From a virus, in the IMG/VR virus record IMGVR_UViG_3300006903_000126, positions 1 through 22,921 of that record: 22,921 nt of DNA, one strand, 5' to 3'. This document shows positions 9,583 to 22,921 of this stretch, piece after piece. A model generated the notes under the pieces. It saw only the letters and a program-made list of their open reading frames with translations. It made no database searches and was not told the DNA's origin. The translations under genes and the position numbers were made by a program. Every line of letters begins with the position of its first letter. Positions within the stretch are counted from its first letter, which is position 1.

Positions 9583-10065
9583 TTATTCGGGCAGCTTCTC
9601 CACGGCGGGCTGCTCGCCATTCTCGACTGGGGCTTCTGGCTCAACCGCCTTCAGCTCCGGGACCGACGGTGGCACCTGGATTGCCATCCGCATGATCTGT
9701 CCCCGATCCAGATCGCAGTTGAACTCCTCGTTGTCCGAGAGGCCATGCTGCTTGCAGATGTTGCGAATGAAAGCGGTCTTCTCGTTGCCAAGCATCGACA
9801 TGATCCGCGAGTAGTGCTGCTGGAGCGCCGCCAGCTCCTTCAGCTTCTCGCTGACGAAGACGATCTCGTCGTTGCGGGCCTTGATCTCGTTGACCTCGAG
9901 CACGGTCAGATCTGCCGCGTACTCCGGTTCAGGGAGTCGCTGGAGCACGGTACCCACCTGGCGCTCGACCATGCGTGGTTCCCTGGGAGCTCGCATCCGA
10001 CGTCGTTGGGATCGATTCGGGAGGTCGGTCATGGCATCCTCGTGCAGGTTGTTAGAGCTCGCCAC
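9583..10065 (-). CDS. Hypothetical protein (160 aa from GTG 10065, or 149 aa from ATG 10032)
   Basis: Coding-like frame with a helical central segment (NEIKARNDEIVFVSEKLKELAALQQHYSRIM). ATG 10032 has GAGGA 4 nt upstream, while GTG 10065 has no obvious SD. No family recognised. Confidence 0.55.
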   Translation of the reverse strand: MASSNNLHEDAMTDLPNRSQRRRMRAPREPRMVERQVGTVLQRLPEPEYAADLTVLEVNEIKARNDEIVFVSEKLKELAALQQHYSRIMSMLGNEKTAFIRNICKQHGLSDNEEFNCDLDRGQIMRMAIQVPPSVPELKAVEPEAPVENGEQPAVEKLPE

Positions 10066-10097
10066 AGTCTACGCAGTTTGGTGCAGAGCCAGAAGGC

Positions 10098-10985
10098 TCA
10101 TGGGTCCACCGTCACTGCCGCCATCCGCAGCTCGCAGGACGCATCCGAAGGCGGCGGATAGCCCCACGGGAAGCCGATCTTGTCATCGAACAGCACCGCC
10201 AGTGGCGTGGATGGCTCCGCCGCAGTCACCCTGAATACCTCGGTGCCGTCGATCAGGAAGGCGACAAAGCCGCTGCGCCGCTCGGTGCGGAACTCGTGGA
10301 AGGTAGTCCGGATGTCAGATGGGATCGGGAGGCCGTATTTGCTGCCCGCGCCCTGTCCAATGACGTGGGCCGCCAACTGCTGCCGCTCCAGCATTTCCGG
10401 CCAGTCAATCTCGGTCGAGGACCAGGTGGTCGTGTCGTACAGCCACCCCGCCTGCCAGCAGCCGGGATCTGGATTGAAGCTCAGCCAGGTGCGATAGGTG
10501 CCGTAGCCAAAAGTCGGGCCGTTTCCGCTCTGCGACGTGCCCAGCAGGACCGCGTCCCAGAGGCCGTCGCTGCGCTTTGCCGTGGTGAGATCTAGGTAGC
10601 CATCGTGGAAGCTGGCCCGCTGCGCGCCGTTGGCGAAGCGGTTGTAAGCCTCCATCAGGTCCGACGGGTGAGCGTCGGGGTAGGTCAGCACCTTGAAGGG
10701 CGCCAGGCTCCCATCGCTGAACACCTTGCGTAGCAGGGTTCCGTACTGAGGCGGTATCACCGGCAACCCGGTTGGACTCTGGCTCGCTGTCGGAGCAGGG
10801 GTCGGGGTTGGTGTCTGGGTCGGAGTGGGGATCGGGGTCGGGGTCGGCGTTGGGGCAACCGTCGGAGAAGCAGTCGCCGTTGGGTGCGGCCTCGGGGTCC
10901 GGATCGGGCGCTTCGCCTCTGTTGATCCGACCAGCACCATCGCGAATATCAGCGCAGCGGCGAACAGCCGAACACTACGCGGCAT
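10098..10985 (-). CDS. Secreted GH16-like (concanavalin-A-like glucanase fold) glycoside hydrolase with a Sec signal peptide and a Pro/Thr linker, 295 aa
   Basis: N-terminus MPRSVRLFAAALIFAMVLVGSTEA|KRP has the n-, h- and c-regions of a signal peptide (10914..10985). The PT-rich linker is 10770..10898. The catalytic-type motif E-I-D-W-P-E (10395..10412) fits the GH16 ExDxxE signature. Flanking GCWQAGWLYD and TFHEFRTERRSGFVAFLIDGTEVFR match the remembered WPAfWl and fH.Y..eW.p..i.fyvDG blocks. Confidence 0.6.
   Translation of the reverse strand: MPRSVRLFAAALIFAMVLVGSTEAKRPIRTPRPHPTATASPTVAPTPTPTPIPTPTQTPTPTPAPTASQSPTGLPVIPPQYGTLLRKVFSDGSLAPFKVLTYPDAHPSDLMEAYNRFANGAQRASFHDGYLDLTTAKRSDGLWDAVLLGTSQSGNGPTFGYGTYRTWLSFNPDPGCWQAGWLYDTTTWSSTEIDWPEMLERQQLAAHVIGQGAGSKYGLPIPSDIRTTFHEFRTERRSGFVAFLIDGTEVFRVTAAEPSTPLAVLFDDKIGFPWGYPPPSDASCELRMAAVTVDP
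10770..10898 (-). repeat. Pro/Thr-rich low-complexity linker (imperfect ACCCCG-type hexanucleotide repeats)
   Basis: Encodes TPRPHPTATASPTVAPTPTPTPIPTPTQTPTPTPAPTASQSPT. The plus strand shows reiterated ggggtcgg units. Confidence 0.8.
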
Positions 10986-10997
10986 GACGACACCCCC

Positions 10998-12206
10998 TTA
11001 TTCCCAGAGCGTTCTGCGCGAGAAACCTGCCAGCGGAATGATGCGGTTCGTCGTGAGTGCGGTCGGAATGATGTTCGACGGCAGCGGATAGGCCGACGCC
11101 TTCTCGAGCCCCAGCATGCGGCTGCCCCACAGGGCCGGTGAGCTGCGGAACACCGTCGCCGTCGTACCCGAGCAGACCAGCGCCAGCCACAGGCTCGGGT
11201 TACCGGGCCTCGAGGGAGGCAGCACGAACGAGGCGGTGCTGGCCTTGATCTCGACTGCGCAACTTCCCCACGCGGCTGACGTGAACGTGGCGTCGACGGT
11301 CGTATCGTTGCCGACATTCCACTCGGTCTCGAGCGCCTGCGCCGGAGTGGCGGCGGTCTGGTCCGCGGTCTCGGTGAAGCCAGTGCCGGGGGCCGTGGCT
11401 GTCGCCGCGGCGTGGCCGTGGGCACCGAACGTCGCGTTGTTGGCGGAGCCGAAGGCGGCCAGCGTTGCCAGCGCCGTACCGCTGCTCCCGGTACCGACAG
11501 CCTGCTGCACGATTCCGTCGTTGGTCGTCGTATCGACCCCTGAGAACTCCTCGAGCGCCCAGCAGGCGCCCGTCTGGGTGGTCGCGCCGAACGAGATGCT
11601 GATCGTGCCGGTGTAGTCGGCCGTCGGGACGCACGACCAGATGCTTACCCGGTTCAGGTTCGTGTTGTATTGCGTGGTGGAGCGGCTGGCCCACGTGCCA
11701 CCACCCGTGATCGAGCTGACCGCAGTCGCGCTCGATCCGTGCGAGTTCTCGACGCTCATCAGGTACAGGCGGCCCGCCTTGAGCGTCACGCTGGCGGTCG
11801 TGTAGCTCGTCGCGTCAGTCGAATCGTTGCCACTCGTGATGTTGGCGTGTGCCGTTTTCCACGTGCCGCTCGCCTGCACGACGTTGGCATTGGCCGACAC
11901 AATCCCACCAGTCGAGCGGATCAGGTCCATGCGTCCGGTGGTGTAATCGGTCATCTCATAGGCGCCAATGTCGAGCGAGTCAGTGCCGACCGTGGCTCCG
12001 TTGGTCCAGCCTGCCTTCGCCACCACGAACGCTTCGATCAGGTACATCGGGAAGAGCAGCGCGAGGTTCGCCGCAGGCCACGTTCCCGAGGCTGGGGCGG
12101 CAGCCCCTCCCGACGCCATCGTTCCCGCGAACTCGGGATGCCACGGTGTGATGATTGGCGGCGCGACCCGGTGCCTGGGCGGCGGTGTCCAGATCGGAAT
12201 GGTCAT
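10998..12206 (-). CDS. Hypothetical Thr/Ser/Ala-rich beta-type protein (402 aa). It is a paralog of 12203..12754 carrying a ~210-aa inserted domain.
   Basis: ATGA overlap with the upstream stop. It shares WPAANL (12063..12080), FP.Y, LDIGAYE and the C-terminal LALVCSGTTATV...LEKASAYPLPS...RT blocks with the 183-aa neighbour. Confidence 0.6.
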   Translation of the reverse strand: MTIPIWTPPPRHRVAPPIITPWHPEFAGTMASGGAAAPASGTWPAANLALLFPMYLIEAFVVAKAGWTNGATVGTDSLDIGAYEMTDYTTGRMDLIRSTGGIVSANANVVQASGTWKTAHANITSGNDSTDATSYTTASVTLKAGRLYLMSVENSHGSSATAVSSITGGGTWASRSTTQYNTNLNRVSIWSCVPTADYTGTISISFGATTQTGACWALEEFSGVDTTTNDGIVQQAVGTGSSGTALATLAAFGSANNATFGAHGHAAATATAPGTGFTETADQTAATPAQALETEWNVGNDTTVDATFTSAAWGSCAVEIKASTASFVLPPSRPGNPSLWLALVCSGTTATVFRSSPALWGSRMLGLEKASAYPLPSNIIPTALTTNRIIPLAGFSRRTLWE

Positions 12207-12754
12207 GGACCGAAGGTCCGGTAGCCCTGGACGCCCATCATTGGCAGGTACGCTCGCGTGTACTTGGCGAACGTGGCCGGGCTGGCCCCGGTCGACAGCG
12301 GCATCGTGATCCCGGCCTGCTCGAGCAGACCGAACGCCTGGAGGATGCCAGCCGCAGGCGCGACGCTTAGGACTGTTAGCGTCGTCACGGTGTCACACAC
12401 CATCGCCATGTAGTACGTGCCTCGCGCGAGCACGGTATCGGTGACGTCGAGAACCTGGAGATCCGTCGCCCCCGCTGCTGCGGTGGTTCCCTTGGACACC
12501 AGCCGGGTTCCGTCCTCAGCGTAGATCCCCAGATCGATGTTGCCCGAGGCGACGCCGATCGCTGCGAACAGCTTGGTCACGGTCACCGGCTCGGGCACGT
12601 AGAACGGCACGAAGATCACGAGGTTGGCGGCAGGCCACGCCGCTGCCGCCCATCCCGTCATGGAGGCGCGGTAGGCGGCGACCCCGAGAGATTGCTCGGT
12701 TGTCGGCGTGATGATGACTTCGCCGGGTCTGGCGAGCTCCGGGGCGAACAGCAT
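12203..12754 (-). CDS. Hypothetical beta-type protein (183 aa), the compact paralog of 10998..12206
   Basis: TAATG junction with the upstream gene (12752..12756). WPAANL lies at 12620..12637. No family recognised. Confidence 0.6.
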   Translation of the reverse strand: MLFAPELARPGEVIITPTTEQSLGVAAYRASMTGWAAAAWPAANLVIFVPFYVPEPVTVTKLFAAIGVASGNIDLGIYAEDGTRLVSKGTTAAAGATDLQVLDVTDTVLARGTYYMAMVCDTVTTLTVLSVAPAAGILQAFGLLEQAGITMPLSTGASPATFAKYTRAYLPMMGVQGYRTFGP

Positions 12755-14064
12755 TAGTAGATCTCGAGCAGATGGAGCTTCGCGTCGCCCGTCGCCGTGT
12801 AGGCAGCCGATGTGATGCCCGTGATTGCATTCGTCACCGGCAGGAAGATCGAGGCTCCCGGATCGAGCACGTAGTGCGTGGCATAGACCGCGGTGCCGCC
12901 GCTGATGTCGAGCGCCACCCCGACGGTCTGCTTATTCGTAATCAGCACGCCCTTCCGCTGCGATCTGGCAGAGATGACCGTCGTCGACGTGTTGCTGATC
13001 GCCACCTGGCTGGCGGCATTGGTCCCAGCTCCGACCTCGTAGCCGACCTGCGCGCCTGAGCGCAGATACCAGGACTGAACGGCATCGCCGTCGGCGCTGA
13101 CCGCGGACGGTGCAGCGGCGCTCGCGTAGCCACCGATCAGCAGCGGGTTGCTGCCGGTGCCGACCGCATCGTGATCCGCGAGCCCCTGCACGCCTGCGCG
13201 GACGTACCAGGGTGCCTGCGATCCAGAGACCTTGACGGTGGCGGTGCCGGAGGCGTAGACCGCGTTGACCCGGTAGCGGACCTGGCGGATACCCTGGCAC
13301 GGCACCATGTACATGTCGTTCACGGCCGGGACGAACGACCCGCTGATGAACGATGGCGGCAGGCCCATCTTGATGACTCCGGACGCCGTCACCCAGTTGG
13401 TGTCGTCCCCGGTCACCTCAAAGATCATGGAGCCCGGCGTCGTACCGATGGTCGTGACGTGGAAGATCATCGAGGCCGCGCCATCGGTGACCACCGTCAC
13501 GGCGTTGGCGGTGTTCGTAGCGGCCACTCCGGCCGGGTTCGTCTTGCGATCCCAGCCCGGCCCGATGCCTGCCGCTGGAATCCCGGTATCGACGTTCGGC
13601 GCTGCATCGAGCGCGGTGATCGACCGGGAGCGATCCCAGGTCGTGCCGTTGAACACCGAAGACCACGACTGGGTATTCAATCCCGCCGTGGCGGTGAACG
13701 CATCGGTCGGCGTGTTGGCGGTGGCCGCGCCGGTACCGTCGTAGCCGGATGCGATGAACACGCCGAGTCGACCCTTGGAGTCGAAGTGGGCGTCGACCCG
13801 ATCCCCTGCCGACACGCCGGTCGGATTGACGGCGGTGACCTTGCCACCGACCTTCATCGGGTTCCCGCTGTCGACGGAGTCATGCGGCGTGGCTCCGCCG
13901 ACAGCGAGTGCTCCGACCGCGCTGACGCCTGTCTCGAGGACACCGCCAGCCGCGACTCCGCCGCCCGAGGCCGGGAATACGATCCCGCTGACCTCGATCA
14001 GGTCAGTACCGCCTCCAGTGTCGTAGTCGAGCTGGCGCTGTTCCCCAAACTGGGCATCAGCCAT
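12754..14064 (-). CDS. Hypothetical fibre- or decoration-like protein (436 aa), paralog of 14071..15543
   Basis: Starts MAD... and shares the DTGG(G)T N-terminal motif with its neighbour. It carries two copies of the ~45-aa module repeated in that neighbour (13753..13887 and 13033..13176). Gly/Ala/Thr/Ser/Val-rich. Confidence 0.6.
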   Translation of the reverse strand: MADAQFGEQRQLDYDTGGGTDLIEVSGIVFPASGGGVAAGGVLETGVSAVGALAVGGATPHDSVDSGNPMKVGGKVTAVNPTGVSAGDRVDAHFDSKGRLGVFIASGYDGTGAATANTPTDAFTATAGLNTQSWSSVFNGTTWDRSRSITALDAAPNVDTGIPAAGIGPGWDRKTNPAGVAATNTANAVTVVTDGAASMIFHVTTIGTTPGSMIFEVTGDDTNWVTASGVIKMGLPPSFISGSFVPAVNDMYMVPCQGIRQVRYRVNAVYASGTATVKVSGSQAPWYVRAGVQGLADHDAVGTGSNPLLIGGYASAAAPSAVSADGDAVQSWYLRSGAQVGYEVGAGTNAASQVAISNTSTTVISARSQRKGVLITNKQTVGVALDISGGTAVYATHYVLDPGASIFLPVTNAITGITSAAYTATGDAKLHLLEIY

Positions 14065-14070
14065 TGGTCA

Positions 14071-15543
14071 TCAGACCTCGTCCCAGTACCCGGTGCTGTA
14101 GACGTCGGCCGCGACCGATGCGTCCTTGTTGGTGATCCTCACCCCGAAGCCCGTCGTCGCGTCGGAGCTGGCCCGGGTGATGAAGGTGTCATCTGGCGCA
14201 CGCCACTGGAGGAGCTGCCCGGCCAGGGCGAAGGCCACGACCCGAGCCGTGAATGAGCCGGTCAGGATCGTACCGATTTCGATCTTGATCGGGACGGTCG
14301 AAGTGACGTCCGCACCCCAGAGCTGACCCGTCTTGCCGGAGGTGACGTAGTGCGTCAGGGTGACGTTCGCCCCAGCGCCCAGGGCGGCTGAAGTCTGCGT
14401 GCTGAAGAACGCCGAGGTCGGCTTGAGCGTGTAGAACGCCGCACCGTCGGTCAAGCGGACCGGGAGCGGGTTCGTCGCACCTGGCGCCGAGCCGACGATC
14501 TGGTTGACGTTGATCGAGCTGTTCGCTGCCGGAGTGACCGCGACGGACCCCTGGTCCGAGGCAATGACCACCGGGAGGCTGTTCGCCGAGGTCTTCGACC
14601 CGATCGTGATGAGCGTTCCTGCCGAGGCCAGGTTCACCACGGGCGAACCATTCCGCAGCATCCACATGGCGACCGCGTCGTTGTTGGCCGACACGTCTGA
14701 AGGTGCCGCCGCATTGGCGAGGCCCATGCTCATCGTGCCGGTCGGCGTCGACGTCGCTGCGGCGTCTCCGACGTACTGCGTGCCGCTGCCGAACGACGTG
14801 ATCTGGTTGCCCGAGCCATCCACGATGGCGACGTTCAGCGCATCGTTCGCCGCCAGGTCACGGACTGTCGCCAGGGTCGTGCCATCCGAGATGCGGACAT
14901 GCTGGGCCGTGGCGATGGTCTGCCCGATGTTCGTGAGCAGCGTGCCGTTGGCGGCGATGTTCACGACCGGCGACCCGTTGCGAAGCATCCACATCGCAAC
15001 CGCGTCGTTGTTGGCAGAGACGTCGGTCGGTGCCGCCGCATTCGCCAGGCCGACGGCCATCAGGCCAGTCGGAGTGGCTGTCGCCGCCGCATCCCCAACG
15101 TACTGCGCGGCCAGCGCAAGCGCGCTCTGGTCCGAAGCGATGACCACGGGCAAGCTCGAAGCCATGGCCTTCTGGCCGATGGTGATGAGGGTGCCCGCCG
15201 AAGCAAGGTTCACGACAGGTGAACCGTTCCGCAGCATCCACATCGCGACCGCGTCGTTGTTGGCGCTGACATCGGACGGCGCTGCCGCGTTGGCAAGGCC
15301 CGAGATCATCAGCGTGTTCGGAGTCGCCGTCGCCGCAGCATCACCGACGTACTGGCCCAGCAGGTCAGCCGTCAGGGAGCCTGAGTTGTCCGTCACCGGC
15401 ACGGCGACGCCCGAGGCATCGACCGAGAGGCGACCCGCGGCCGAAACCGCGGCCTCGTTCGTCCCGCCCGTATCAATGAGCTTCCCCCGGACGAACTCGG
15501 TAGTAAGTGTCTTGACCGCGAGGCCAGTTGAGTTGTCAGCCAT
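14071..15543 (-). CDS. Hypothetical fibre- or decoration-like protein with three tandem 76-aa-type modules (490 aa)
   Basis: GAAGGAG is 7 nt before ATG 15543. The internal repeats begin QYVGDAAAT... No family recognised. Confidence 0.65.
   Translation of the reverse strand: MADNSTGLAVKTLTTEFVRGKLIDTGGTNEAAVSAAGRLSVDASGVAVPVTDNSGSLTADLLGQYVGDAAATATPNTLMISGLANAAAPSDVSANNDAVAMWMLRNGSPVVNLASAGTLITIGQKAMASSLPVVIASDQSALALAAQYVGDAAATATPTGLMAVGLANAAAPTDVSANNDAVAMWMLRNGSPVVNIAANGTLLTNIGQTIATAQHVRISDGTTLATVRDLAANDALNVAIVDGSGNQITSFGSGTQYVGDAAATSTPTGTMSMGLANAAAPSDVSANNDAVAMWMLRNGSPVVNLASAGTLITIGSKTSANSLPVVIASDQGSVAVTPAANSSINVNQIVGSAPGATNPLPVRLTDGAAFYTLKPTSAFFSTQTSAALGAGANVTLTHYVTSGKTGQLWGADVTSTVPIKIEIGTILTGSFTARVVAFALAGQLLQWRAPDDTFITRASSDATTGFGVRITNKDASVAADVYSTGYWDEV
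14551..15354 (-). repeat. Three tandem protein-level repeats: R1 15127..15354, R2 core 14932..15105 plus a divergent 51-aa spacer, R3 14551..14778
   Basis: R1 and R3 are 66/76 identical at the protein level. All three copies contain an identical NNDAVAMWMLRNGSPVVN. The nucleotide copies are diverged at synonymous sites (see findings). Confidence 0.9.
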
Positions 15544-15814
15544 CGACAGGCTCCTTCGGTGCCTTGACCATCAGTTTCAGGTTGGTGTCGTTCTCGGCGA
15601 TCTTGGCCGTGAGAGCTGCCTCATTGGCGAGAATCTTCCGAGCCTCTTCATCCAGTTCCTCGTTCGCGAGCTCGGCTCGCGCGAGGTTGACCTGCTTCTG
15701 ACCGTCAATCTGGGATAGGCGAGCCTGCCCCTGCTTTATCGTCTGTCGATGCTCGAGCGTTGCGAGCTCGAGGCGACGTCGTTCGATCGTGTAGTTGGGA
15801 CCCGCGTCAGCCAT
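15536..15814 (-). CDS. Small coiled-coil-like protein (92 aa)
   Basis: ATG 15814 with GTGAGGT upstream. Heptad-like charged sequence (RRRLELATLEHRQTIKQGQARLSQIDGQKQVNLARAELANEELDEEARKILANEAALTAKIAEN). 8-nt overlap with the next gene. Confidence 0.55.
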   Translation of the reverse strand: MADAGPNYTIERRRLELATLEHRQTIKQGQARLSQIDGQKQVNLARAELANEELDEEARKILANEAALTAKIAENDTNLKLMVKAPKEPVDG

Positions 15815-15821
15815 CTGAACC

Positions 15822-16181
15822 TCACTCAGCGAAGATGGTGCCTTCGTAGTCGCCGGACACGGGACCCGTGTTCTCGACCCGGAGAGCGATGACTGAACCC
15901 GCCGCGATGACCTCTGGGTTCGGCATGACCAAGTAGCCCTCGTTCACGCGGCTGAAACGAGCCTTGATCCCCTCCAGGGGAGCGTTGTCCACTTCGACCC
16001 ACATCTCGCCGTCAGTGGTTCCATGCACCTTGAAGCCACGCAGCTTCCGGGTGCCAGCCACCGTGCTAACGATGGTCTGCACACCACTCGGCGCCAGACC
16101 AGCGATGGCTCCCCGGACGTTCTGCGCGTTCGGAGCCCCACCGCTGCTGCCACCAGCGACAGGCTGGACGATGGCGGTCAT
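15822..16181 (-). CDS. Hypothetical 119-aa beta-rich protein directly after the capsid gene, a candidate head decoration protein
   Basis: ATG 16181 has GAGGA 5 nt upstream. The track's longer form (to 16358) would overlap the capsid gene by 100 nt and encodes an Arg/Ser/Pro-rich out-of-frame-looking leader. Function is inferred from position only. Confidence 0.55.
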   Translation of the reverse strand: MTAIVQPVAGGSSGGAPNAQNVRGAIAGLAPSGVQTIVSTVAGTRKLRGFKVHGTTDGEMWVEVDNAPLEGIKARFSRVNEGYLVMPNPEVIAAGSVIALRVENTGPVSGDYEGTIFAE

Positions 16182-16203
16182 GGCGATCCTCGTAGAGATG
16201 CGG

Positions 16204-16235
16204 GGGGCCGGGGGCCACCAAGGACCCTCGGCCCC
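16204..16235 (-). terminator. GC-rich stem-loop after the major capsid gene. It could be an attenuator, leaky terminator or mRNA stabiliser. There is no U-tract.
   Basis: Minus-sense fold: GGGGCCG-A-GGGTC-[CTTGGT]-GGCCC-C-CGGCCCC, giving 12 bp. One pair is G.U in the minus-sense RNA but a C.A mismatch in the plus sense, which favours function in the coding-sense transcript. It starts 22 nt after the MCP stop. Confidence 0.4.
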
Positions 16236-16257
16236 TCGTTCAGTGCCAGATCTGCGA

Positions 16258-17559
16258 TCAGGTCTGGAAGACGCGGACCTTGTTGCTGAAGGGCAGAGCC
16301 TTCTCAGCCAAGCCCCACATGCCGAAGACGATGAACATGCGGGTGAGCTGTCCGCCAACGCCGACGGGGATCTCGATGACCGTTGGGGCTGCGGAGCCCA
16401 GGTACGGCAGCGAGATGGTGGCCTCGTCGAGGACGTAGATGTCGCCCACGGTCTCCCCGTTGGCGCCTCCGGTCCCCGTGTAGGTCCCGATCGACGGCCC
16501 AGGCACCGGGATCAGCGGCAGTGCCCCAAACGGGCTGTTGAATGCCTGAGTCCGAACGCCGACCGCGATGTCGACGAGCTCAGACGTCCAACGCACGTTG
16601 GCTTCCTGCTGCTTGTCCAGGAGGTGCTTGTTGAAGGCCGACAGGTAGATCGCCGAGGCAGATCCGCCATCGTCCATGATCGGCACGCATGCCAAGTCGA
16701 GCTTGTCGATGAACTGGTCAGGGGTCCCTGCGAAGGGATCCATGTTCACGACGCGGCTGCCGTTGGTGTCCGTGTTGAGAAGCTGGCGAAGCCCGGTGAA
16801 GCCGTCCGGATCGAACTCGCCCGCCTCGGTGGAGGCGGTTCCGCCCGACTCGGTGTCGTTGGCGTTGCCACCGAAGATGGTCTTCTGCATCTTCGCGGCG
16901 ATCGCCACGAGCGCCGACCGCATCTCGAGCTGCTCGGGGTTGAAACCCGAGCCGGACTGGAGCGCGGCGAACTGCTGCTTCAGGGTGACTCCGCGCCGGG
17001 TGCCGATGATCGCGACGTTCGTGGTCTTCCGGCCGTACGTCCCACGATCGTCAACGACGGTTCCCAGCTCGGAGATGAACTCAGCGCCACCCGGGCTGGT
17101 CTGCTGGGTGAAGGTGTGGACCAGGCCGTTCGCGGGCTCCTTGGTGAAGCGATCCCACGCTGGGAAGGCTCGCACGAAGAGCTCGTACATGAACGGCTCG
17201 AGGTCCTGCCGCACCAGGGCAGAGCCGGAGGTCGTGTCGAGCGCCTTCTTCAGATCCGGGCTGGCTCCGACTGCGTCGATGAGCTGCTGCCCACCGGCTG
17301 CCAGCCAGACCTCGAGAGGAACGCCGGTCCCCCGGACGCGAAGCTGCTTGCTGAGCGCGTGGTAGACGTGCGGGGTCGCGAGCTTCCGCAGCTCCATCTG
17401 CATCTCGAAGATGTCATCTCCGGAGAGCAGCTTGCGTGCGGGTGTCTCGTCTCCCGGCCCTTCCACGATCGGCGTGGAGTGGGGAGTCGCGTTGAGGGCT
17501 TCGAGCTTCTGTCGAAACTCGTCGACGAGCGCGAGCCCTTCTGCGAGATCAGGGTGCAT
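16258..17559 (-). CDS. Major capsid protein, HK97 fold (433 aa from ATG 17559)
   Basis: Directly downstream of the prohead protease. AAGGAG is 6 nt before ATG 17559, whereas the track start at 17595 lacks an SD and lies deeper in the protease gene. Size and the pattern LDTTSGSALVRQDLEPFMYELFVRAFPAWDRFTKEPANGLVHTFTQQTS resemble HK97-type capsid proteins. Confidence 0.8.
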   Translation of the reverse strand: MHPDLAEGLALVDEFRQKLEALNATPHSTPIVEGPGDETPARKLLSGDDIFEMQMELRKLATPHVYHALSKQLRVRGTGVPLEVWLAAGGQQLIDAVGASPDLKKALDTTSGSALVRQDLEPFMYELFVRAFPAWDRFTKEPANGLVHTFTQQTSPGGAEFISELGTVVDDRGTYGRKTTNVAIIGTRRGVTLKQQFAALQSGSGFNPEQLEMRSALVAIAAKMQKTIFGGNANDTESGGTASTEAGEFDPDGFTGLRQLLNTDTNGSRVVNMDPFAGTPDQFIDKLDLACVPIMDDGGSASAIYLSAFNKHLLDKQQEANVRWTSELVDIAVGVRTQAFNSPFGALPLIPVPGPSIGTYTGTGGANGETVGDIYVLDEATISLPYLGSAAPTVIEIPVGVGGQLTRMFIVFGMWGLAEKALPFSNKVRVFQT

Positions 17560-19102
17560 CGGAAGCTCCTTGGTTGTGCTTGGCGATGTAGGCAAGGAGC
17601 TCGCCGCTGTACGGACCGCCCTTCAGGCGCTCCGCGAGGCCAGCGGCCTCACGTCGCACCACGGACTTCCGTCCAACCGGCATGCTCATCAGCCTGTTGA
17701 CGATCTCGACCGCGGTCGCGACATTCTTGTCGGCCTCGGCGAGCTTTGTGGTGAGAGCCTCGTTCTTGGCTGTCAGCTCAGCGGTCTTCGCTCTCTCGGC
17801 GATGAGTGTCGCTAGGGTCTCCCCCAGCACCCTCACGGTCTCGGTGAGACCGTTCAGCACTCCCTCGGCCTGGAGAGCTCGGATCTGAGCCTCGGCCTCC
17901 TTTTCGGCTTCCCCGTCAACCCCTGCGTCGCCTTCAGGGTCGCTCGCGGGTGGAGCTTCCTGATCGTCGGTGGGGTCAGCTTCCTCGCTCGCCGAATCCG
18001 GGGGGTCCGGGGCGGGCTCGGAGTTCAGGATCTCGGAGGCCATGTCCTTCGCAGTTCGACCCTCGAACTCGCTAGCTGCGACGCCATGCTCAAGCGCATA
18101 GTCGATCGAAGCCTGGACGGCCTCCTCCATTGCATCGAGATCGGTCCGACTGGCCTTGCCAGCCTCGACCTGAATCTGGTAGTGGGCGATGATCTGGTCC
18201 GGGCCATCGGCCTGGAAGACCCCGTCCTCGTCGTCGTCGGGCTCAGGCGGCTCGCCCGGCTCGGGAACCTCTGCCACCACGGTGGGTGGCTCTTCGGTCT
18301 CGTCGTCGACCTCTGTGTTGGCGAGGTCGAGATCCTCCTCGGGATCCACGGACGCCTCCTTCTTGCTGAACGACAGCCACTTCTGCCGCATCCGGTTGAA
18401 CTGGTCCTCGCTGGCGCCACGCACGGCGCCCTTCTGGATGAGGCCCTTGGTGGCGTTCTCGACCCAGCTCAGCGGGTTCGCGGGGATCCCGACCATGCTC
18501 GCTTCGAGAAGGATGACTTCGTTGATGATGAGCGGCGCCCAGTAGTCGCCCTCGTAGTCGGGGTCCTCCTCGAAGTCGGTGATTAGCGCCCCGATCGAGA
18601 TTCCAACCGTGACGCCGTTCTCCATCGAGGCGAAGGTGGCCTCGGCACGCGGGTTCGAGGAGTCCTCGAGGACGGTGATGTCCATCAAGGTGATCGGGTC
18701 GTTGGGGGCGCTCTTGTCGATGTAGCCCTGGGCCTTGGCCTCCGCGGCGGACATGGTCCGCGTGCGGGCCTTCTCGGCCACGCCGAAGACATCCTCGGGC
18801 AGCTTGTAGTTGTGGTTCAGGAAGATCGTCTTGCCGACGATCTGCTTCGTCATCGATCGAACGCAGGCGTCCGTCATCCGGTCGCCATGCAGGTCCTTGA
18901 CCGACGAGGAGGCAATGCCTCTGACCCGCTTGCGGCCATCCGAAGAGGCGGACGACTTGACGACCTTCAGCTCCCCCGTGAAGATCTTGAAGTCAGGTCG
19001 CTCGTGCTCCCCTTCGTCGCCGAGCAGCACGGTTCCCACCATTGGCTCGAGGGACTCGAGCAACTCCTGGGTCGACTGCGGCTTGGGCTTCGTGAGCGTC
19101 AT
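17549..19102 (-). CDS. Prohead (capsid maturation) protease of HK97/S78 type fused to an acidic, coiled-coil scaffold-like C-terminal half (517 aa)
   Basis: GAGGTG is 7 nt before ATG 19102. The N-terminal ~215 aa carry remembered S78 blocks: GIASSSVKDLHGDRM (candidate His72), FLNHN, GISIGA (candidate Ser169) and LLEASMVGIPANP. The C-terminal half has Asp/Glu/Pro-rich linkers followed by a helical region (IRALQAEGV...LTAKNEALTTKLAEADKNV). Confidence 0.8.
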   Translation of the reverse strand: MTLTKPKPQSTQELLESLEPMVGTVLLGDEGEHERPDFKIFTGELKVVKSSASSDGRKRVRGIASSSVKDLHGDRMTDACVRSMTKQIVGKTIFLNHNYKLPEDVFGVAEKARTRTMSAAEAKAQGYIDKSAPNDPITLMDITVLEDSSNPRAEATFASMENGVTVGISIGALITDFEEDPDYEGDYWAPLIINEVILLEASMVGIPANPLSWVENATKGLIQKGAVRGASEDQFNRMRQKWLSFSKKEASVDPEEDLDLANTEVDDETEEPPTVVAEVPEPGEPPEPDDDEDGVFQADGPDQIIAHYQIQVEAGKASRTDLDAMEEAVQASIDYALEHGVAASEFEGRTAKDMASEILNSEPAPDPPDSASEEADPTDDQEAPPASDPEGDAGVDGEAEKEAEAQIRALQAEGVLNGLTETVRVLGETLATLIAERAKTAELTAKNEALTTKLAEADKNVATAVEIVNRLMSMPVGRKSVVRREAAGLAERLKGGPYSGELLAYIAKHNQGASDAP

Positions 19103-20285
19103 GCGCTAGCACCTCGATGTACTCGTTGAACCTTGCCGCTGCCTCGTCCCAGACGAACGAGCGGGTGACGTGCTCCAGACCTGCCTGCTCGGCATCCCGA
19201 CGCCAGCGCCGCGATGCGTAGGCACGTTCGATGGCTTCGGAGAAGGCGCCGATGTCGGCGAGCCAATGGTCCTGTCCGAAGGGGACCGTGATCTCTCGCC
19301 CGGGTTCGATCAGCTCGCCACCAGGACCCACGACCTCGGGGATCGCAGATACGTTCTGGGCGATGACTGGAACGGCGCAGGCCAACGATTCGGCCAGCGT
19401 GAGCCCGAAGCCCTCACCTCGGCTTGTCGACACGAACAAGTCGAAGGCGTTGTAGATGGCGTTGAGATCCTGCTGGCTGTACCCCTGGTTGGTGATGAAC
19501 CGGCTCGGCACGCGGAACCGATCCAGCAGGTCGAGCTCGCGGCTGAAGAGCGCCGGGAGGTTGACACCCGATCGCTCGTCCTTGGGCTTGCAGTGGAAGT
19601 AGGTGACGACGTCTGAATGGCGACGCATCACCGGCAGCACGGCTTTCCAGGTGGATGCGAAGTCCTTGCGGCCGGTGTTGCGATCGACCCTGCCGATCAA
19701 GAACGAGTCCGGATCGAAACCGAAGGCCCGCTTGCAGTCCCTCTTGGTCCGAAGCACATCGCCGCGGCTGATGGTGATCGGCCGCTCCCCGGAGACCGGC
19801 CAGAAGAGATCCGTGTCGACGCCGTGGTAGACGAGCTTCGCCTCCGGCATGGCCTCCAGGCCGAACTTGCTCATCGCGACTCGGTTCGTGACCTGACCCA
19901 ACGGGTCGTACATCTTTGGGTTGTTGTACCCATCGATCGGGATGTAGGCCAAGACCGGAAACCGCTTGATGATGAGCCGCTCGGGATCGAAGCGGTTGTT
20001 CAGCAACCAGGCGTAGAGCACCTGCGGGTCGTTGAGCGTGACGATCACGTCAGGCATGACGTTGGCGGCCAGCTCGATGAACCGGCTCATCCCGTAGGTG
20101 TCCCCTGCATCATGGATGGTGGGGACGTACATCTGGACCTTGGTCGGGTAGGGGTCGCCTTTGTAGTTGGTCGCTAGGAGATGGACCTCGTGTCCGTACT
20201 GCTCGACCAGGCGATCTCCCAGGGCATGAGCAACTCGAGCGAAGCCGGTGGCGCTGCCACCGTCACCGATCCATAGGACGCGCAT
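18993..20285 (-). CDS. GT-B fold glycosyltransferase (family 1 / GT4-like), 430 aa
   Basis: GGAGGA lies upstream of ATG 20285. The N-terminus MRVLWIGDGGSATGFARVAHALGDRL is a typical GT-B start. The C-terminal domain has STSRGEGFGLTLAESLACAVPVIA, i.e. the E-x7-E motif. The last ~37 codons overlap the protease gene. Confidence 0.75.
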   Translation of the reverse strand: MRVLWIGDGGSATGFARVAHALGDRLVEQYGHEVHLLATNYKGDPYPTKVQMYVPTIHDAGDTYGMSRFIELAANVMPDVIVTLNDPQVLYAWLLNNRFDPERLIIKRFPVLAYIPIDGYNNPKMYDPLGQVTNRVAMSKFGLEAMPEAKLVYHGVDTDLFWPVSGERPITISRGDVLRTKRDCKRAFGFDPDSFLIGRVDRNTGRKDFASTWKAVLPVMRRHSDVVTYFHCKPKDERSGVNLPALFSRELDLLDRFRVPSRFITNQGYSQQDLNAIYNAFDLFVSTSRGEGFGLTLAESLACAVPVIAQNVSAIPEVVGPGGELIEPGREITVPFGQDHWLADIGAFSEAIERAYASRRWRRDAEQAGLEHVTRSFVWDEAAARFNEYIEVLAHDAHEAQAAVDPGVARVPRANGGNRAARRRRGARAT

Positions 20286-20400
20286 CGTTCCTCCACGCCA
20301 GGCAGCGAAACGCTGCGGGCTGATGGTGAAAGGCGAACAAGCGTGCTACGCTTGTGCGGGCGGACCCTGGGTCAGGGCTGAATGGCAGCTCGGGGGTCCG

Positions 20401-20466
20401 CCTCTCCTATTCCGGGGATGGCACGGCTAGCGTTTGACCGCTAGCCGTCCATTCGGCACGGAGAGG
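20401..20466. promoter_or_regulatory. Long imperfect palindrome or extended hairpin (~24 bp in total), a candidate operator or RNA processing/regulatory structure
   Basis: The inner repeat is a perfect 10-bp inverted repeat, acggctagcg (20423..20432) / cgctagccgt (20439..20448), with a 6-nt loop. It is flanked by ggatgg/ccattc (20416..20421 / 20449..20454). The outer arms are cctctcc/ggagagg (20401..20407 / 20460..20466). Confidence 0.5.
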
Positions 20467-20494
20467 AGATTCGTGAGGCGCACGATAACAGATG

Positions 20495-20514
20495 CCCTGT
20501 CGACTTGAACAGGG
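20495..20514 (-). terminator. Short hairpin immediately after the stop of the 103-aa gene, a weak intrinsic-terminator candidate
   Basis: ccctgt (20495..20500) / acaggg (20509..20514) with an 8-nt loop. In the minus sense it is followed by CAUCUGUUAUCG, which is only moderately U-rich. Confidence 0.3.
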
Positions 20515-20515
20515 T

Positions 20516-20827
20516 CTAGCTCACGGTGAGCGCCTGCGCCGCAACCTGGGAATCGTTGCTCGCATCACGCAGGACGAGGTTCCAGCTCCCTGGCTCGTCG
20601 AAGATGACGCTGAGCCAGTCGTGAAGTCCGCCGTGCGAGACGTCGAAGACGTGGCTCTTCAGGTTCTTGGCGATGTCCGACCCGGAGGGCCGCTCTGCCT
20701 CGATGTAGTAGCGGAACTCGCCCCCCGTCTTGTGGGGGCCACGAGCGTAATCGGCTCCGCTGACCGACACCTTGCAGATGTCGATGGTCGCGCGGGGAGC
20801 CGCTGGGTCGACTGCGATCGCCACCAT
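20516..20827 (-). CDS. Hypothetical small beta-sandwich-like protein (103 aa from ATG 20827)
   Basis: AGGAG is 6 nt before ATG 20827, right after the upstream TAG (20839..20841). The track's longer start (20887) overlaps the previous gene. The sequence alternates in a beta pattern (TIDICKVSVSG...EFRYYIEAE...SHVFDVS...WNLVLRDASN). Confidence 0.55.
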   Translation of the reverse strand: MVAIAVDPAAPRATIDICKVSVSGADYARGPHKTGGEFRYYIEAERPSGSDIAKNLKSHVFDVSHGGLHDWLSVIFDEPGSWNLVLRDASNDSQVAAQALTVS

Positions 20828-20838
20828 GAGCTTCTCCT

Positions 20839-21168
20839 CTACTCCGCCGCGACCTCGAAGTCGCGCTCGGCCTTGACGCCGCCGCATGAGATTGCGACGT
20901 GATGATTCCCGTCCACGACGGGCATGAACGATACCTGGACCTCACCGAAGGGATCGGTCATCAGCTCCAGCGCTCCGCGCGGGTCGGGCCAGATAGTAAT
21001 GACCGCAGGCTCCGAGGGCGGGAACTTGCTTCCTGTCACCGTGATCCCCTGGTGGATGACCAGCGGCTTCGGTCCGATGTCGATGGCTCCGCCGCTGGCG
21101 GCGGGAGCTGCCTTGGCGGGTGCCTTCTTCGCTGCTGGCTTCTTCGCGAGGGCCGTCTTGCTAGCCAT
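20839..21168 (-). CDS. Hypothetical small protein (109 aa) with a Lys/Ala/Pro-rich N-terminal tail and an Ig-like beta domain
   Basis: AAAGGAG is 4 nt before ATG 21168. The N-terminus is MASKTALAKKPAAKKAPAKAAPAASGG. This is followed by ITVTGSKFPPSEPAVITIW...GEVQVSF...HHVAISCGGVKAERDFEV. Confidence 0.6.
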   Translation of the reverse strand: MASKTALAKKPAAKKAPAKAAPAASGGAIDIGPKPLVIHQGITVTGSKFPPSEPAVITIWPDPRGALELMTDPFGEVQVSFMPVVDGNHHVAISCGGVKAERDFEVAAE

Positions 21169-21958
21169 CTGGCTCCTTTCCCTCGAATGCGAGGTCTCTC
21201 ACGGCTGACCACCATGCAAATGATTGCACGTAAGGCCAGCCCTTCTCTGCGGCAACACCAACACAGGCGTCATGCATCATCAGGATGTTGTGAGCCTCCC
21301 AGCCGCGATTGCCCTTTCCGATCTGGAAGTATCGCAGGTAGTCCTGCATCATCTCGTCGAGGCTGCGTACATGGTCGATGCGGCCGTACGGCCACCACAG
21401 CTCGATCCTGGCGCTCGGCCGGGAATGCAGGGTCTTCGGCCAGCCGAGGCTCCTGCGAAAGAGCCGTAGGTGCCCAGATGACATCGGATCCTGCTGCTCG
21501 CTGACCGATTCGACTCCGTCAACCAGCGTGTGAAACGGGATCCAGACTCCCTCTGCACCGACCGATTCCGCGTAGGCTGTCGCGGTCCACATCGACTCGA
21601 GCAGCTCCTTGCTCGGCATCTCATCCAAGGCGATGTCGAATAGCCACGGAGTCCGCACCGCAGACACGATCCGATCCATCGACGCGTCGCCATAGCCCAG
21701 GTGCGGCTCGCGGAGCACCTGGTCTCCGGGGCGGTTCGCCAAAGATTCGGCAATCTTGAGCGTCGAATCGGTCGATTCCTGCACACCGACGACAAGATTC
21801 GAGAACCAGCGCTTCATCAGCTTGAGGAGTGCGGGCATCCGCGCCTCCTCATTCCAGGCGACCATGACTCCGGTGCAGTCGGTGTATGGACCCCGGTTCG
21901 GAAGGCTGGTGCCGGTCTTGGCCGCGATCTCCTCGATTGGTTCCTCGACCCGGATCAT
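21161..21958 (-). CDS. GT-A fold (GT2-like) glycosyltransferase, 265 aa
   Basis: ATGA overlap with the upstream acyltransferase. GVMVAWNEEARMPALLKLM....LVVGVQESTDSTLKIAESL resembles the GT2 N-terminal nucleotide-sugar binding block. WLFDIALDEMP is a DxD-like motif, and HLRLFRRSLGWPKTLHSRP resembles the RlFr...vHE block of some GT2 members. Confidence 0.6.
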   Translation of the reverse strand: MIRVEEPIEEIAAKTGTSLPNRGPYTDCTGVMVAWNEEARMPALLKLMKRWFSNLVVGVQESTDSTLKIAESLANRPGDQVLREPHLGYGDASMDRIVSAVRTPWLFDIALDEMPSKELLESMWTATAYAESVGAEGVWIPFHTLVDGVESVSEQQDPMSSGHLRLFRRSLGWPKTLHSRPSARIELWWPYGRIDHVRSLDEMMQDYLRYFQIGKGNRGWEAHNILMMHDACVGVAAEKGWPYVQSFAWWSAVRDLAFEGKEPDG

Positions 21959-22734
21959 TCCTGCGGCCAGGGCTCCGCCCGAGGCATCTCAAAGAACTCG
22001 CCGAACAGGTCGGGAGCTACCGGACGATTCGCGGGCACCCGAGCGGGGATCCCCATCACCGTCGACCCTGGCAGAACGTCCTTCGTCACCACGGCCCCTG
22101 CCGCGATGATGGCGTCGTTGCCGATCCGGATCCCCGGCAGCAGCAGCGCCCCACCGCCTATCCGTACTCGCTGGCCGATCTTCGGCCCGACGACCTCGCC
22201 TCCGCGCTGCATGGAGTTGTCGTTCATCATGTAGACGCCGACCGAGATGAAGCACTCGTCGCCGATCACCGCGTCGTTGCAGATGTGCGAGAGGTCGACG
22301 ATCTTGCAGCGGCGCCCGATCCTGGCTCCATTCTGGATCGTGCTGTTGTTGCCGACCACGGTCTCCGACCCGATCTCGGTGTCCTCTCGGATCGTGACCC
22401 CTTCGCCGATCAGCACCTTGGGCTCGATCACGACGCCTGCGTAGATGACAACGTGCGTCCCGATCACGGATCCGTCCTCGATCCGGGTCTGCCCGTTCTG
22501 CACGTGCGGCATCCTGGCGATGACGCCCGCCACCTTCGGCTGCTTGCCCAGGTAGGCACCCGGGAAGATCGTCACATCGTCCCCGATCCAGACACCCTCC
22601 TCCACCACGACGCCGGGATAGAGGTGTGTCCTGCGACCCACGGTCGCTCCGCGCCGCACGATGGCGAACTCGTCGATGATGGCTCCGCTCCGGATGTCGG
22701 TATCGAGCTCGATGATCGCCATCTCTGAGATCAC
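21955..22734 (-). CDS. Hexapeptide-repeat (left-handed beta-helix) acyl/acetyltransferase, 259 aa, GTG start
   Basis: AAGGAG is 5 nt before GTG 22734. There are many [LIV]-G-x4 hexapeptide turns (IGDDVTIFPGAYLG, IEDGSVIGTHVVIYAGVVIEPKVLIGEGVTIREDTEIGSETVVGNNSTIQNGARIG, IGGGALLLPGIRIGNDAIIAAGAVVTKDV). These are typical of sugar-nucleotide N/O-acyltransferases. Confidence 0.8.
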   Translation of the reverse strand: MISEMAIIELDTDIRSGAIIDEFAIVRRGATVGRRTHLYPGVVVEEGVWIGDDVTIFPGAYLGKQPKVAGVIARMPHVQNGQTRIEDGSVIGTHVVIYAGVVIEPKVLIGEGVTIREDTEIGSETVVGNNSTIQNGARIGRRCKIVDLSHICNDAVIGDECFISVGVYMMNDNSMQRGGEVVGPKIGQRVRIGGGALLLPGIRIGNDAIIAAGAVVTKDVLPGSTVMGIPARVPANRPVAPDLFGEFFEMPRAEPWPQE

Positions 22735-22736
22735 GA

Positions 22737-22921
22737 TTACTCCTTCGAGGCTTTGATCGCCTGCGCGATGTCTCCCACGGCCCCCGCCACCATGGCTCCG
22801 ACCGACTCTGGCACCTCGAACCGCACGACGTTCTCGGTGGCGGCTGGCTGACCGTCGGTAGACGGCGCTCCGGCCGGAGGCTTGGCCTCCTTCGATTCCA
22901 TCATCTCGCGGGCGGTAGGAA
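22737..22921 (-). CDS. Small ORF (55 aa from ATG 22904), or the 3' end of a longer gene entering from beyond the window
   Basis: The frame is open from the window edge to TAA at 22737..22739 (…MMESKEAKPPAGAPSTDGQPAATENVVRFEVPESVGAMVAGAVGDIAQAIKASKE). Its last codons contain the SD of the next gene. I cannot decide between the two options without upstream sequence. Confidence 0.35.
   Translation of the reverse strand, partial: PTAREMMESKEAKPPAGAPSTDGQPAATENVVRFEVPESVGAMVAGAVGDIAQAIKASKE

Follow-up and report, generated by a model that had tools for sequence, protein, structure and literature searches.

The stretch of viral DNA analysed here (IMG/VR record IMGVR_UViG_3300006903_000126, positions 1 to 22,921; hereafter the window, 22,921 nucleotides in length) belongs to an uncultivated, siphovirus-like phage of 69 kb, known from metagenome sequence only. 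Between its portal gene and its prohead protease gene lies a cassette of three sugar-active enzymes: a hexapeptide-repeat acetyltransferase and two soluble glycosyltransferases, one of GT-A fold and one of GT-B fold, the latter of family GT4 and referred to below as GT4. With moderate confidence, this cassette is proposed to glycosylate virion proteins, i.e., to be a cytoplasmic, phage-encoded system of the head-morphogenesis module. This reading is preferred because the closest relatives of the GT-A enzyme have protein or peptide specificity, because GT4 is obligatorily coupled to the protease and the capsid, because membrane and DNA-modification partners are absent, and because the lifestyle of the phage is apparently lytic. 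Both glycosyltransferase genes lie on the strand of the structural genes, and their position suggests late expression.

GT4 belongs to the core genes of this head module. The synteny set comprised 100 loci, in which each protein of the window was compared with all open reading frames (ORFs). In about 60 loci selected by GT4 (GT4 at least 38% identical, DNA present downstream), the order GT4, protease, capsid was invariant, and the capsid gene was followed by a gene for a protein of about 295 amino acids, homologous to residues 115-413 of a 413-amino-acid protein in the window. As these first loci had been selected by GT4, the test was repeated from the capsid to remove the selection effect. 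The best 80 of the 269 capsid relatives in IMG/VR were taken, 40 of these had at least 3.1 kb of sequence upstream, and GT4 lay ahead of the protease in all 40. Core-gene status follows from this invariance in GT4-selected and capsid-selected loci alike. For many relatives, the overlap between the longest GT4 ORF and the longest protease ORF is just 4 nucleotides.

Homologues of GT4 are numerous: 912 had E values of 1e-5 or less among 8,000 candidates scored, many of them on contigs of 65-77 kb (a scan of IMG/VR with the single protein gave no match, but the alignment-based scan did find relatives). The interval from portal to GT4 is variable among the relatives and may contain genes for a methyltransferase and an NAD-dependent epimerase/dehydratase, as many as three additional GT2 genes and one for a protein of about 1400 amino acids; the genes filling it are nearly all sugar-related. 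In isolated phages, distant relatives of GT4 were found by tblastn, all of them non-mycobacterial: in phages of Pontimonas and Synechococcus they lie beside or near head or packaging genes, and in Tetrasphaera phage TJE1 about 2.6 kb upstream of the large terminase gene, and they are accompanied by methyltransferase, GT2 or epimerase genes. A literature search on the glycosyltransferases of phiPsal1, TJE1 and S-CBS4 yielded nothing useful.

The first-pass annotation, made from the sequence alone, had called GT4 a GT-B transferase with an E-x7-E motif, and the call stands. Two Pfam GT1 models, Glyco_trans_1_4 (PF13692, E = 4e-14) and Glycos_transf_1 (PF00534, E = 3e-12), are matched above cut-off, phrog_2170 is also matched (E = 2e-31), and the motif (E291...E299) is invariant, together with R206 and K207, in 17 homologues of 54-76% identity. 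Invariance of the motif and of the phosphate-binding residues predicts an active enzyme rather than a relic. When the GT4 profile (A1) was compared with the Protein Data Bank (PDB), the best solved relative, and the only one matched over its full length, was chlorovirus B736L (3oy2, E = 1.4e-20, residues 9-401), which like GT4 is virus-encoded, soluble and of GT-B fold. In chloroviruses, virus-encoded enzymes working in the cytoplasm glycosylate the major capsid protein; to our knowledge, the acceptor of B736L has not been established. B736L differs from GT4 in its source, a eukaryotic giant virus, in having no synteny with capsid genes and in its low sequence identity.

As a single sequence, the GT-A enzyme matches Glycos_transf_2 below threshold (E = 0.0067, 16.8 bits; Pfam cut-off 23.3), but a profile of 14 homologues (A2), 7 of which match PF00535 or PF13704, establishes the GT-A/GT2-like fold that had been predicted. 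The three best solved relatives of this profile are SunS (7msp, E = 1.6e-11), ThuS (E = 3.8e-8) and GmaR (E = 5e-7), and all three are protein or peptide glycosyltransferases: SunS and ThuS are S-/O-glycosyltransferases of glycocins, and GmaR is the flagellin O-linked N-acetylglucosamine (GlcNAc) transferase of Listeria. Their substrates are cytoplasmic polypeptides, folded or unfolded, and SunS is prophage-encoded. The phage enzyme shares with them the GT-A core, with nucleotide-binding and DxD-like motifs (QESTD and D112-E113 are conserved in the alignment of homologues). The alignment is, however, confined to its N-terminal 150 residues or so, whereas its C-terminal half (HLRLF...HSRP...SLDEMMQDYLRY) is without a solved relative and replaces the tetratricopeptide-repeat or helical peptide-binding parts of the others. 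In contrast to the SunS and ThuS systems, there is no glycocin precursor peptide here, the adjacent conserved gene encoding an immunoglobulin (Ig)-like protein of 103 amino acids. By its profile, the enzyme is assigned to the GT-A fold and to a SunS/ThuS/GmaR-like group, with a putative protein acceptor. A SunS-like GT-A gene is present in 18 related loci; tblastn of the protein against 50,697 records of isolated phages gave no match.

No membrane-spanning segment was found in the cassette proteins (maximum Kyte-Doolittle mean over 19 residues, 1.56 or less). The genome was surveyed via precomputed Pfam matches over about 68 of its 69 kb (L004 and L106-L109), in which no membrane protein, flippase, polyprenyl-phosphate transferase, acyltransferase-3 or integrase was present; for membrane-spanning proteins, flippases and polyprenyl-phosphate transferases, this bears out the first-pass annotation. 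Nor did the survey, which divergent enzymes could escape, contain any DNA polymerase, hydroxymethylase, TET/JBP, DpdA, QueC/QueE, thymidylate-synthase-like or nucleotide-metabolism gene. A metagenomic contig of 69,235 bp encodes exactly the GT4 protein of the window, and assemblies of different samples gave it in two circular permutations; it therefore represents the complete phage genome, which, to judge by these permutations, is free and either circularly permuted or circular. The source samples have the accessions ENA ERZ27257700 and ERZ27257952. A prophage or serotype-conversion reading was rejected, there being no integrase in the roughly 68 kb surveyed and the permuted 69,235-bp contigs being identical. 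Serotype-converting systems (GtrABC and Oac) are, like phage DNA glucosyltransferases, phage-encoded sugar- or acetyl-transfer enzymes, but they need integral membrane proteins and lysogeny, neither of which is present here. The earlier argument from a missing flippase to a cytoplasmic acceptor leaves room for lipid-linked wall polymers that are modified in the cytoplasm.

The acetyltransferase gene starts with GTG behind the ribosome-binding site AAGGAG. Its product had been called a hexapeptide-repeat acyl/acetyltransferase, which agrees with six Hexapep stretches in Pfam and with PDB matches to QdtC (3fs8, E = 1.3e-22, residues 20-246, full length) and WlbB (3mqg, E = 9e-11). The match to the NCBIfam model of NeuD/PglB/VioB sugar acetyltransferases (TIGR03570) has an E value of 9e-33 and a score of 113.6, under the cut-off of 160.8. 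QdtC and WlbB are nucleotide-sugar 3-N-acetyltransferases, and by closest similarity the enzyme falls into the nucleotide-sugar N-acetyltransferase subgroup (QdtC/WlbB/PglD), with N- rather than O-acetylation, and its substrate, as predictions. The cassette is not self-contained, for candidate aminotransferase and 3-dehydrogenase partners form an operon in the same 69-kb genome, about 25 kb from the acetyltransferase gene and adjoining an HNH endonuclease gene. The best PDB match of the aminotransferase is 7b0d, deposited as “Glutamine--scyllo-inositol transaminase” (E = 7e-86), followed by WbpE (5e-73), perosamine synthetase (1e-71) and QdtB (5e-69). For the oxidoreductase, the best NCBIfam model is UDP-N-acetylglucosamine 3-dehydrogenase (E = 3.6e-68, under the cut-off; UDP, uridine diphosphate) and the best PDB match is 7bvj.

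In the synthesis of 2,3-diacetamido sugars, which are classic components of surface polysaccharides, WbpB acts as dehydrogenase, WbpE as aminotransferase and WbpD as N-acetyltransferase (PMC10622841). Candidate genes for the same three chemistries as in WbpB/WbpE/WbpD (WlbA/WlbC/WlbB) and QdtB/QdtC are present in the phage, with all three enzyme classes in one genome. Unlike the Wbp genes, those of the phage are split over two operons on opposite strands, no 6-dehydrogenase (WbpA), 2-epimerase (WbpI) or O-antigen assembly gene was seen in the phage, and the scores lie under the curated equivalog cut-offs, so that no exact sugar is assigned. These genes lead us to infer that a 3-acetamido sugar nucleotide, with putative regiochemistry and nucleotide, is produced by the phage itself. 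No homologue of the aminotransferase or dehydrogenase lies within 10 kb of GT4 in the relatives, and the IMG/VR matches to the aminotransferase are located on unrelated contigs.

The proposed mechanism would begin with a host UDP-sugar, probably UDP-GlcNAc, which the UDP-GlcNAc-3-dehydrogenase-like enzyme of the Gfo/Idh/MocA family and the WbpE-like enzyme of the DegT family would convert to a 3-amino sugar nucleotide. The hexapeptide enzyme would then N-acetylate this product, giving a donor of the UDP-2,3-diacetamido type. Finally, the SunS/GmaR-like GT-A enzyme and the virus-type GT4, the latter presumably translated off the same message as the prohead protease and the capsid, would transfer the diacetamido sugar, or host sugars, onto protein acceptors during head assembly. 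Gene identities, folds and families, synteny and the lack of membrane or DNA-modification partners come directly from the analysis; which sugar is used, that the acceptor is a protein and which virion protein is modified are inferred from them.

There is a precedent for such a system. Cluster O mycobacteriophages encode an O-methyltransferase, two glycosyltransferases and a putative N-acetylglucosaminyltransferase in the interval from portal to capsid maturation protease (PMC4351075), and in the genome map of Corndog this cassette (gp35-gp38) occupies the portal-to-protease slot. The slot is thus not unusual for such enzymes, contrary to the first-pass annotation, since Cluster O (Corndog) keeps a methyltransferase and three glycosyltransferases there (PMC4351075). 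According to papers citing Freeman et al. (2023), Che8, Corndog and Myrna have capsid and tail-tube subunits to which phage enzymes attach glycans, reportedly O-linked and C-terminal, and virion glycosylation shields mycobacteriophage particles from antibodies. The phage studied here is known from its genes alone, whereas glycosylation has been reported for those three. It resembles Corndog in the order portal, modification enzymes, capsid maturation protease, capsid; in a genome of about 70 kb; in an actinobacterial host (probable here); and in having several soluble glycosyltransferases with one glycan-tailoring enzyme. The Corndog cassette enzymes are not found in virions. The tailoring enzyme is an N-acetyltransferase here and an O-methyltransferase in Corndog, although relatives of this phage do carry methyltransferases; moreover, unlike in Corndog, GT4 is here a conserved core gene translationally coupled to the protease, and a donor-sugar pathway (dehydrogenase and aminotransferase) is encoded elsewhere in the genome. 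Homology to Corndog gp35-38 was considered and rejected: blastp of these proteins against all ORFs of 104 loci gave no matches, hhalign of the GT-A profile against gp36, gp37 and gp38 gave probabilities under 1%, and tblastn of the window enzymes against the 50,697 phage records returned no mycobacteriophage. As the enzymes are without detectable homology to those of Corndog, the cassette appears to be an independent, differently built version of a precedented system, with a putative function.

Several points weigh against virion-protein glycosylation. The evidence for a virion glycan is indirect. The mycobacteriophage-type glycosylation signature was sought in the capsid, which has no Ser/Thr-rich C-terminal tail and a conserved end, FSNKVRVFQT; the earlier proposal that virion proteins such as the capsid are the acceptors accords with the relatives of the GT-A enzyme, the GT4-protease linkage and the missing partners. 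The enzymes are without detectable homology to the Corndog glycosyltransferases by blastp, tblastn and hhalign alike. The acetyltransferase is an accessory gene, as only 2 other related loci carry one (3 genomes in all); the three sugar-pathway genes are not clustered; and the dehydrogenase and acetyltransferase matches lie under the curated NCBIfam cut-offs, hence their substrate is uncertain. The families themselves are broad: TarS is a weak match to the GT-A profile (E = 0.0045), and GT2 enzymes also modify teichoic acids, lipids and small molecules; similarly, MshA and BshA are among the PDB matches of GT4, and GT4 enzymes also act on lipids, small molecules and teichoic acids.

The strongest alternative is that the enzymes act during infection, from the cytoplasmic side, on a host envelope glycopolymer (candidates are wall teichoic acid, lipoglycan, arabinogalactan and the precursor of an S-layer glycan), possibly so as to block the adsorption of competing or progeny phages, as with prophage TarP or TarM-type enzymes. 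Envelope enzymes make up the bulk of the GT4 and GT2 families, the Joint Genome Institute labels the homologues “glycosyltransferase involved in cell wall biosynthesis”, and the weak TarS match fits, as do diacetamido sugars as classic constituents of surface polysaccharides; lipid-linked polymers can, in addition, be modified in the cytoplasm without a phage flippase. Such an activity would, however, hardly account for the strict, coupled linkage of GT4 to protease and capsid throughout the family. The best GT-A relatives target proteins or peptides rather than envelope polymers, the cassette is without membrane proteins, and, with no integrase or lysogeny module seen, serotype conversion would have no obvious beneficiary. 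Envelope modification is considered unlikely.

Perhaps the three enzymes share neither pathway nor target and are independent accessory genes (“morons”) in a permissive site of the head operon, GT4 acting, for example, on a precursor of the mycothiol or bacillithiol type, in keeping with MshA and BshA among its matches. The high variability of the portal-to-GT4 interval and the presence of the acetyltransferase in only 3 genomes would be expected of such genes. Yet GT4 is constant, being present in every relative that could be checked and overlapping the protease gene; the variable genes are nearly all of one kind, sugar-related (methyltransferase, epimerase, several GT2); and a dehydrogenase and an aminotransferase that would fit the acetyltransferase are encoded by the same phage. 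Unconnected genes are therefore quite improbable.

Hypermodification of the phage DNA against restriction, on hydroxymethylated bases as in T4 or in phages with 5-hydroxymethylcytosine glycans, is highly improbable: phage glycosyltransferases are classically DNA-modifying (see also bioRxiv 10.1101/2023.12.21.572611), PF20706 (“GT4 in conflict systems”) matches GT4 and a PTPS/QueD-like gene lies near the terminase gene, but the PF20706 match coincides with generic GT1 families on the same stretch, the genes sit in a late head operon and not beside replication genes, PADLOC gave zero matches, the base-modifying, polymerase and nucleotide-metabolism genes named above are missing from the roughly 68 of 69 kb surveyed, and the hydroxymethylated bases that the T4 alpha- and beta-glucosyltransferase systems need, like the nucleotide-metabolism genes with which those systems sit, had no counterpart in that survey. 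A link to defence systems was likewise rejected, PADLOC being without matches.

The window has a G+C content of 65%, and every gene is on the minus strand (Table 1), in the order portal, acetyltransferase, GT-A, 109-amino-acid ORF, 103-amino-acid ORF, a gap of 230 nucleotides, GT4, protease, capsid. The first-pass annotation was right about the position of the three enzyme ORFs and about their location between portal and protease, but in placing them directly ahead of the protease it omitted the two small ORFs and the gap. Likewise, it had described the three enzymes as translationally coupled. The ATGA overlap of acetyltransferase and GT-A (21955-21958) is seen in the sequence, whereas the 8-nucleotide overlap at 21161-21168, which also exists, joins GT-A to the 109-amino-acid ORF and not to another enzyme. 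Because the structured non-coding gap splits off GT4, the three enzymes are not a single unit; there are two coupled units, acetyltransferase/GT-A/109-amino-acid gene and GT4/protease. The GT4 gene does run into the protease gene, as had been noted, but by 110 nucleotides only if the protease starts at the ATG at 19102 (with GAGGT ahead), and by 50 nucleotides from 19042, where metagenome gene callers put the start; the start is ambiguous because the N-terminus of the protease is not conserved. The protease itself matches Pfam S78 (E = 0.0046), phrog_80 and TIGR01543 (E = 5e-5), and PF04586 in relatives. With more than 900 GT4 homologues and conserved synteny, the cassette ORFs are judged to be real genes rather than chance ORFs.

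Table 1. Features of the cassette and its surroundings (positions refer to the window unless another locus is given; aa, amino acids; nt, nucleotides)
Feature	Position	Strand	Basis or remark
Portal protein C-terminus, last 61 codons (471 aa in full contig)	22738..22921	-	PF04860 Phage_portal on full gene in L004/L005
Left-handed beta-helix (hexapeptide) acetyltransferase, 259 aa, QdtC/WlbB-like	21955..22734	-	Pfam Hexapep E = 5e-33
GT-A (GT2) glycosyltransferase, 265 aa, SunS/ThuS/GmaR-like subgroup	21161..21958	-	Profile of 14 homologues
109-aa protein, Lys/Ala-rich N-terminus, beta-rich body	20839..21168	-	ORF; 8-nt overlap with GT-A gene
103-aa stand-alone Ig/FN3/MG2-like beta-sandwich protein	20516..20827	-	AlphaFold2 (predicted local distance difference test, 88.4); Foldseek
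Structured non-coding leader, 230 nt, between 103-aa gene and GT4	20286..20515	-	RNA fold z = -5.33
Conserved hairpin ACCAUCAGCC-loop-GGCGUGGAGG (variable inner stem)	20290..20327	-	Just 5′ of, or overlapping, GT4 ribosome-binding site
GT-B/GT4 glycosyltransferase, 430 aa	18993..20285	-	Pfam, phrog_2170, full-length PDB profile match
Prohead serine protease (S78/HK97-like) with acidic coiled-coil scaffold-like C-terminal part	17549..19102 or ..19042	-	Pfam, phrog, TIGR
Major capsid protein, 433 aa	16258..17559	-	phrog_752 E = 9e-8; family alignment
GH16-domain protein, 295 aa, in the 9583-16181 block	10098-10985	-	Pfam E = 1e-7
DegT/DnrJ/EryC1 aminotransferase (355 aa) and Gfo/Idh/MocA oxidoreductase (317 aa)	L107 7987-10004, outside window	Opposite to cassette	

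The 230-nucleotide stretch ahead of GT4 holds a terminator-like hairpin (20495-20514), just after which a conserved -10-like hexamer TANNNT (20482-20487) was read by eye from alignment A3 (L025, L012, L010, L007, L030), rather than called by a tool. In the same alignment, the blocks CCGAACGGACGGCTA and AGCGTAGCACnCTTGT are conserved among phages whose proteins are only 55-70% identical. This suggests that the stretch may hold an internal late promoter and a long 5′ untranslated region. A scan of 18900-22921 for sigma-70 promoters gave no matches.

At the downstream end of this leader, close to GT4 (ATG at 20283-20285, Shine-Dalgarno sequence GGAGG at 20290-20294), is a second, conserved hairpin, the 3′ arm of which overlaps the Shine-Dalgarno sequence. 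Among 51 distinct family loci, 17 have its motif at 70 nucleotides or less from the start of GT4, compared with 0.0065 expected per window, and the fold was identical in all 16 distinct sequences. The inner stem covaries, with 89.6% of cells paired as against 36-54% for slid partners, and none of 500 shuffles reached the observed score. The hairpin was also seen upstream of GT4 in L007, L008, L010, L012, L015, L027, L030, L037, L041, L042, L046, L050, L054, L070 and L076. Rfam, run on the whole window with leader and hairpin included, matched no family. The overlap with the Shine-Dalgarno sequence suggests translational control, or an operator bound by a protein, for the GT4-protease-capsid message; alternatively, the hairpin may be an element that stabilises the mRNA of the head operon. 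A second exact copy of ACCATCAGCC, at 19766-19775 on the minus strand inside the GT4 coding sequence, is probably due to chance, as the window contains 4 matches (with one mismatch or none) where 1.9 are expected.

The two small proteins encoded between the glycosyltransferases differ in their distribution. The 109-amino-acid protein has one homologue among the related loci (L025) and matched no family in Pfam, PHROG and NCBIfam scans, while the 103-amino-acid protein is present in 21 related loci, usually directly after or adjacent to a glycosyltransferase gene. The top Foldseek match of its model is the MG2 domain of alpha2-macroglobulin (2p9r, E = 1.2e-3, TM score 0.63); Ser58 is invariant and Cys18 mostly conserved. 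Because of its persistent adjacency to glycosyltransferase genes, it is a candidate surface-decoration protein or acceptor. The same fold class recurs beyond the capsid gene: the 413-amino-acid protein (8329-9570, minus strand) corresponds to the post-capsid protein of about 295 amino acids found across the family, extended by an N-terminal domain of about 114 amino acids that has weak matches to MG2 and phrog_33358.

Between the capsid gene and this otherwise invariant neighbour, a block of about 6.6 kb (9583-16181, minus strand) with eight genes (119, 92, 490, 436, 183, 402, 295 and 129 amino acids) has been inserted, an arrangement found only in this phage. The 490-amino-acid protein contains three internal repeats of about 100 amino acids and is paralogous to the 436-amino-acid protein, genes for relatives of which are situated upstream of GT4 in some related phages (L008, L012, L054). 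The Ser/Thr-rich proteins at 10998-15543, which are part of this block and had been named as candidate acceptors, are possible ones; they have no family assignment, and nothing ties them to the enzymes. In the GH16-domain protein, an N-terminal segment resembles a signal peptide and there is a long linker of Pro and Thr (TPTPTPIPTPTQTPTPTP), features that are hallmarks of secreted actinobacterial enzymes and odd within a structural operon; the protein could be an accessory protein of lysis or a depolymerase accessory.

Sequence beyond position 22921, where the insertion point was to be sought, confirms that the portal adjoins the acetyltransferase (its stop codon is 2 nucleotides ahead of the acetyltransferase start) and that the terminase precedes the portal. 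The genes 5′ of the cassette are a ParB-like gene, a possible small terminase, the large terminase, a gene of 66 amino acids and the portal; those 3′ of the capsid gene encode unassigned proteins, connector and tail proteins, and a tape measure protein of 1632 amino acids. A lone PTPS/QueD-like gene (L004 2997-3365, outside the window), 5′ of the terminase, adjoins the ParB-like gene; no further genes of the 7-deazaguanine pathway were detected in the genome. Neither tblastn of the capsid nor megablast of 16000-22921 matched any isolated phage.

The host is probably an actinobacterium. Four contigs with GT4 relatives were binned with actinobacterial metagenome-assembled genomes (Solirubrobacterales, Lysinibacter, Actinomycetes) or with a “Thermotogae” bin, which is weak evidence of host, as three of these contigs are as long as a whole phage (66-77 kb). 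One relative, L007, is on a contig of 230.8 kb (ENA ERZ25039576) in which the portal gene is in pieces; this has the look of long-read indel errors and perhaps of a concatemer, and not of a prophage or a jumbo phage.

A further-reaching version of virion-protein glycosylation can be put forward only tentatively and is somewhat doubtful. Glycosylation of a head protein would be an obligatory part of capsid morphogenesis in a large, wholly uncultivated but widely sampled family of phages of about 70 kb, probably infecting Actinobacteria, and would be carried out by the virus-specific, protease-coupled GT4 under the control of a hairpin operator, with swappable enzymes diversifying the glycan; in this phage, a rare 2,3-diacetamido sugar of its own making would be attached by the SunS-like glycosyltransferase, possibly to the co-conserved 103-amino-acid protein.

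If the cassette does glycosylate virion proteins, such glycosylation would not be a curiosity of mycobacteriophages but a core head-assembly trait of a large family of environmental phages, the breadth of which is given by the 912 GT4 homologues (among the 8,000 candidates scored) and the 269 capsid relatives in IMG/VR. It would have arisen independently in the slot that the mycobacteriophages use, from portal to protease, out of enzymes unrelated to theirs, and the phage would be one that makes an unusual donor sugar of its own. Glyco-engineering would gain a compact group of soluble glycosyltransferases that act on proteins. Through the coupling of GT4 to the protease, and through the hairpin at the GT4 ribosome-binding site, a connection of capsid maturation with glycosylation could be put to the test. 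With a plausible donor pathway and a testable regulatory element, the cassette is a credible second, independently built and widespread example of a recently discovered phenomenon.

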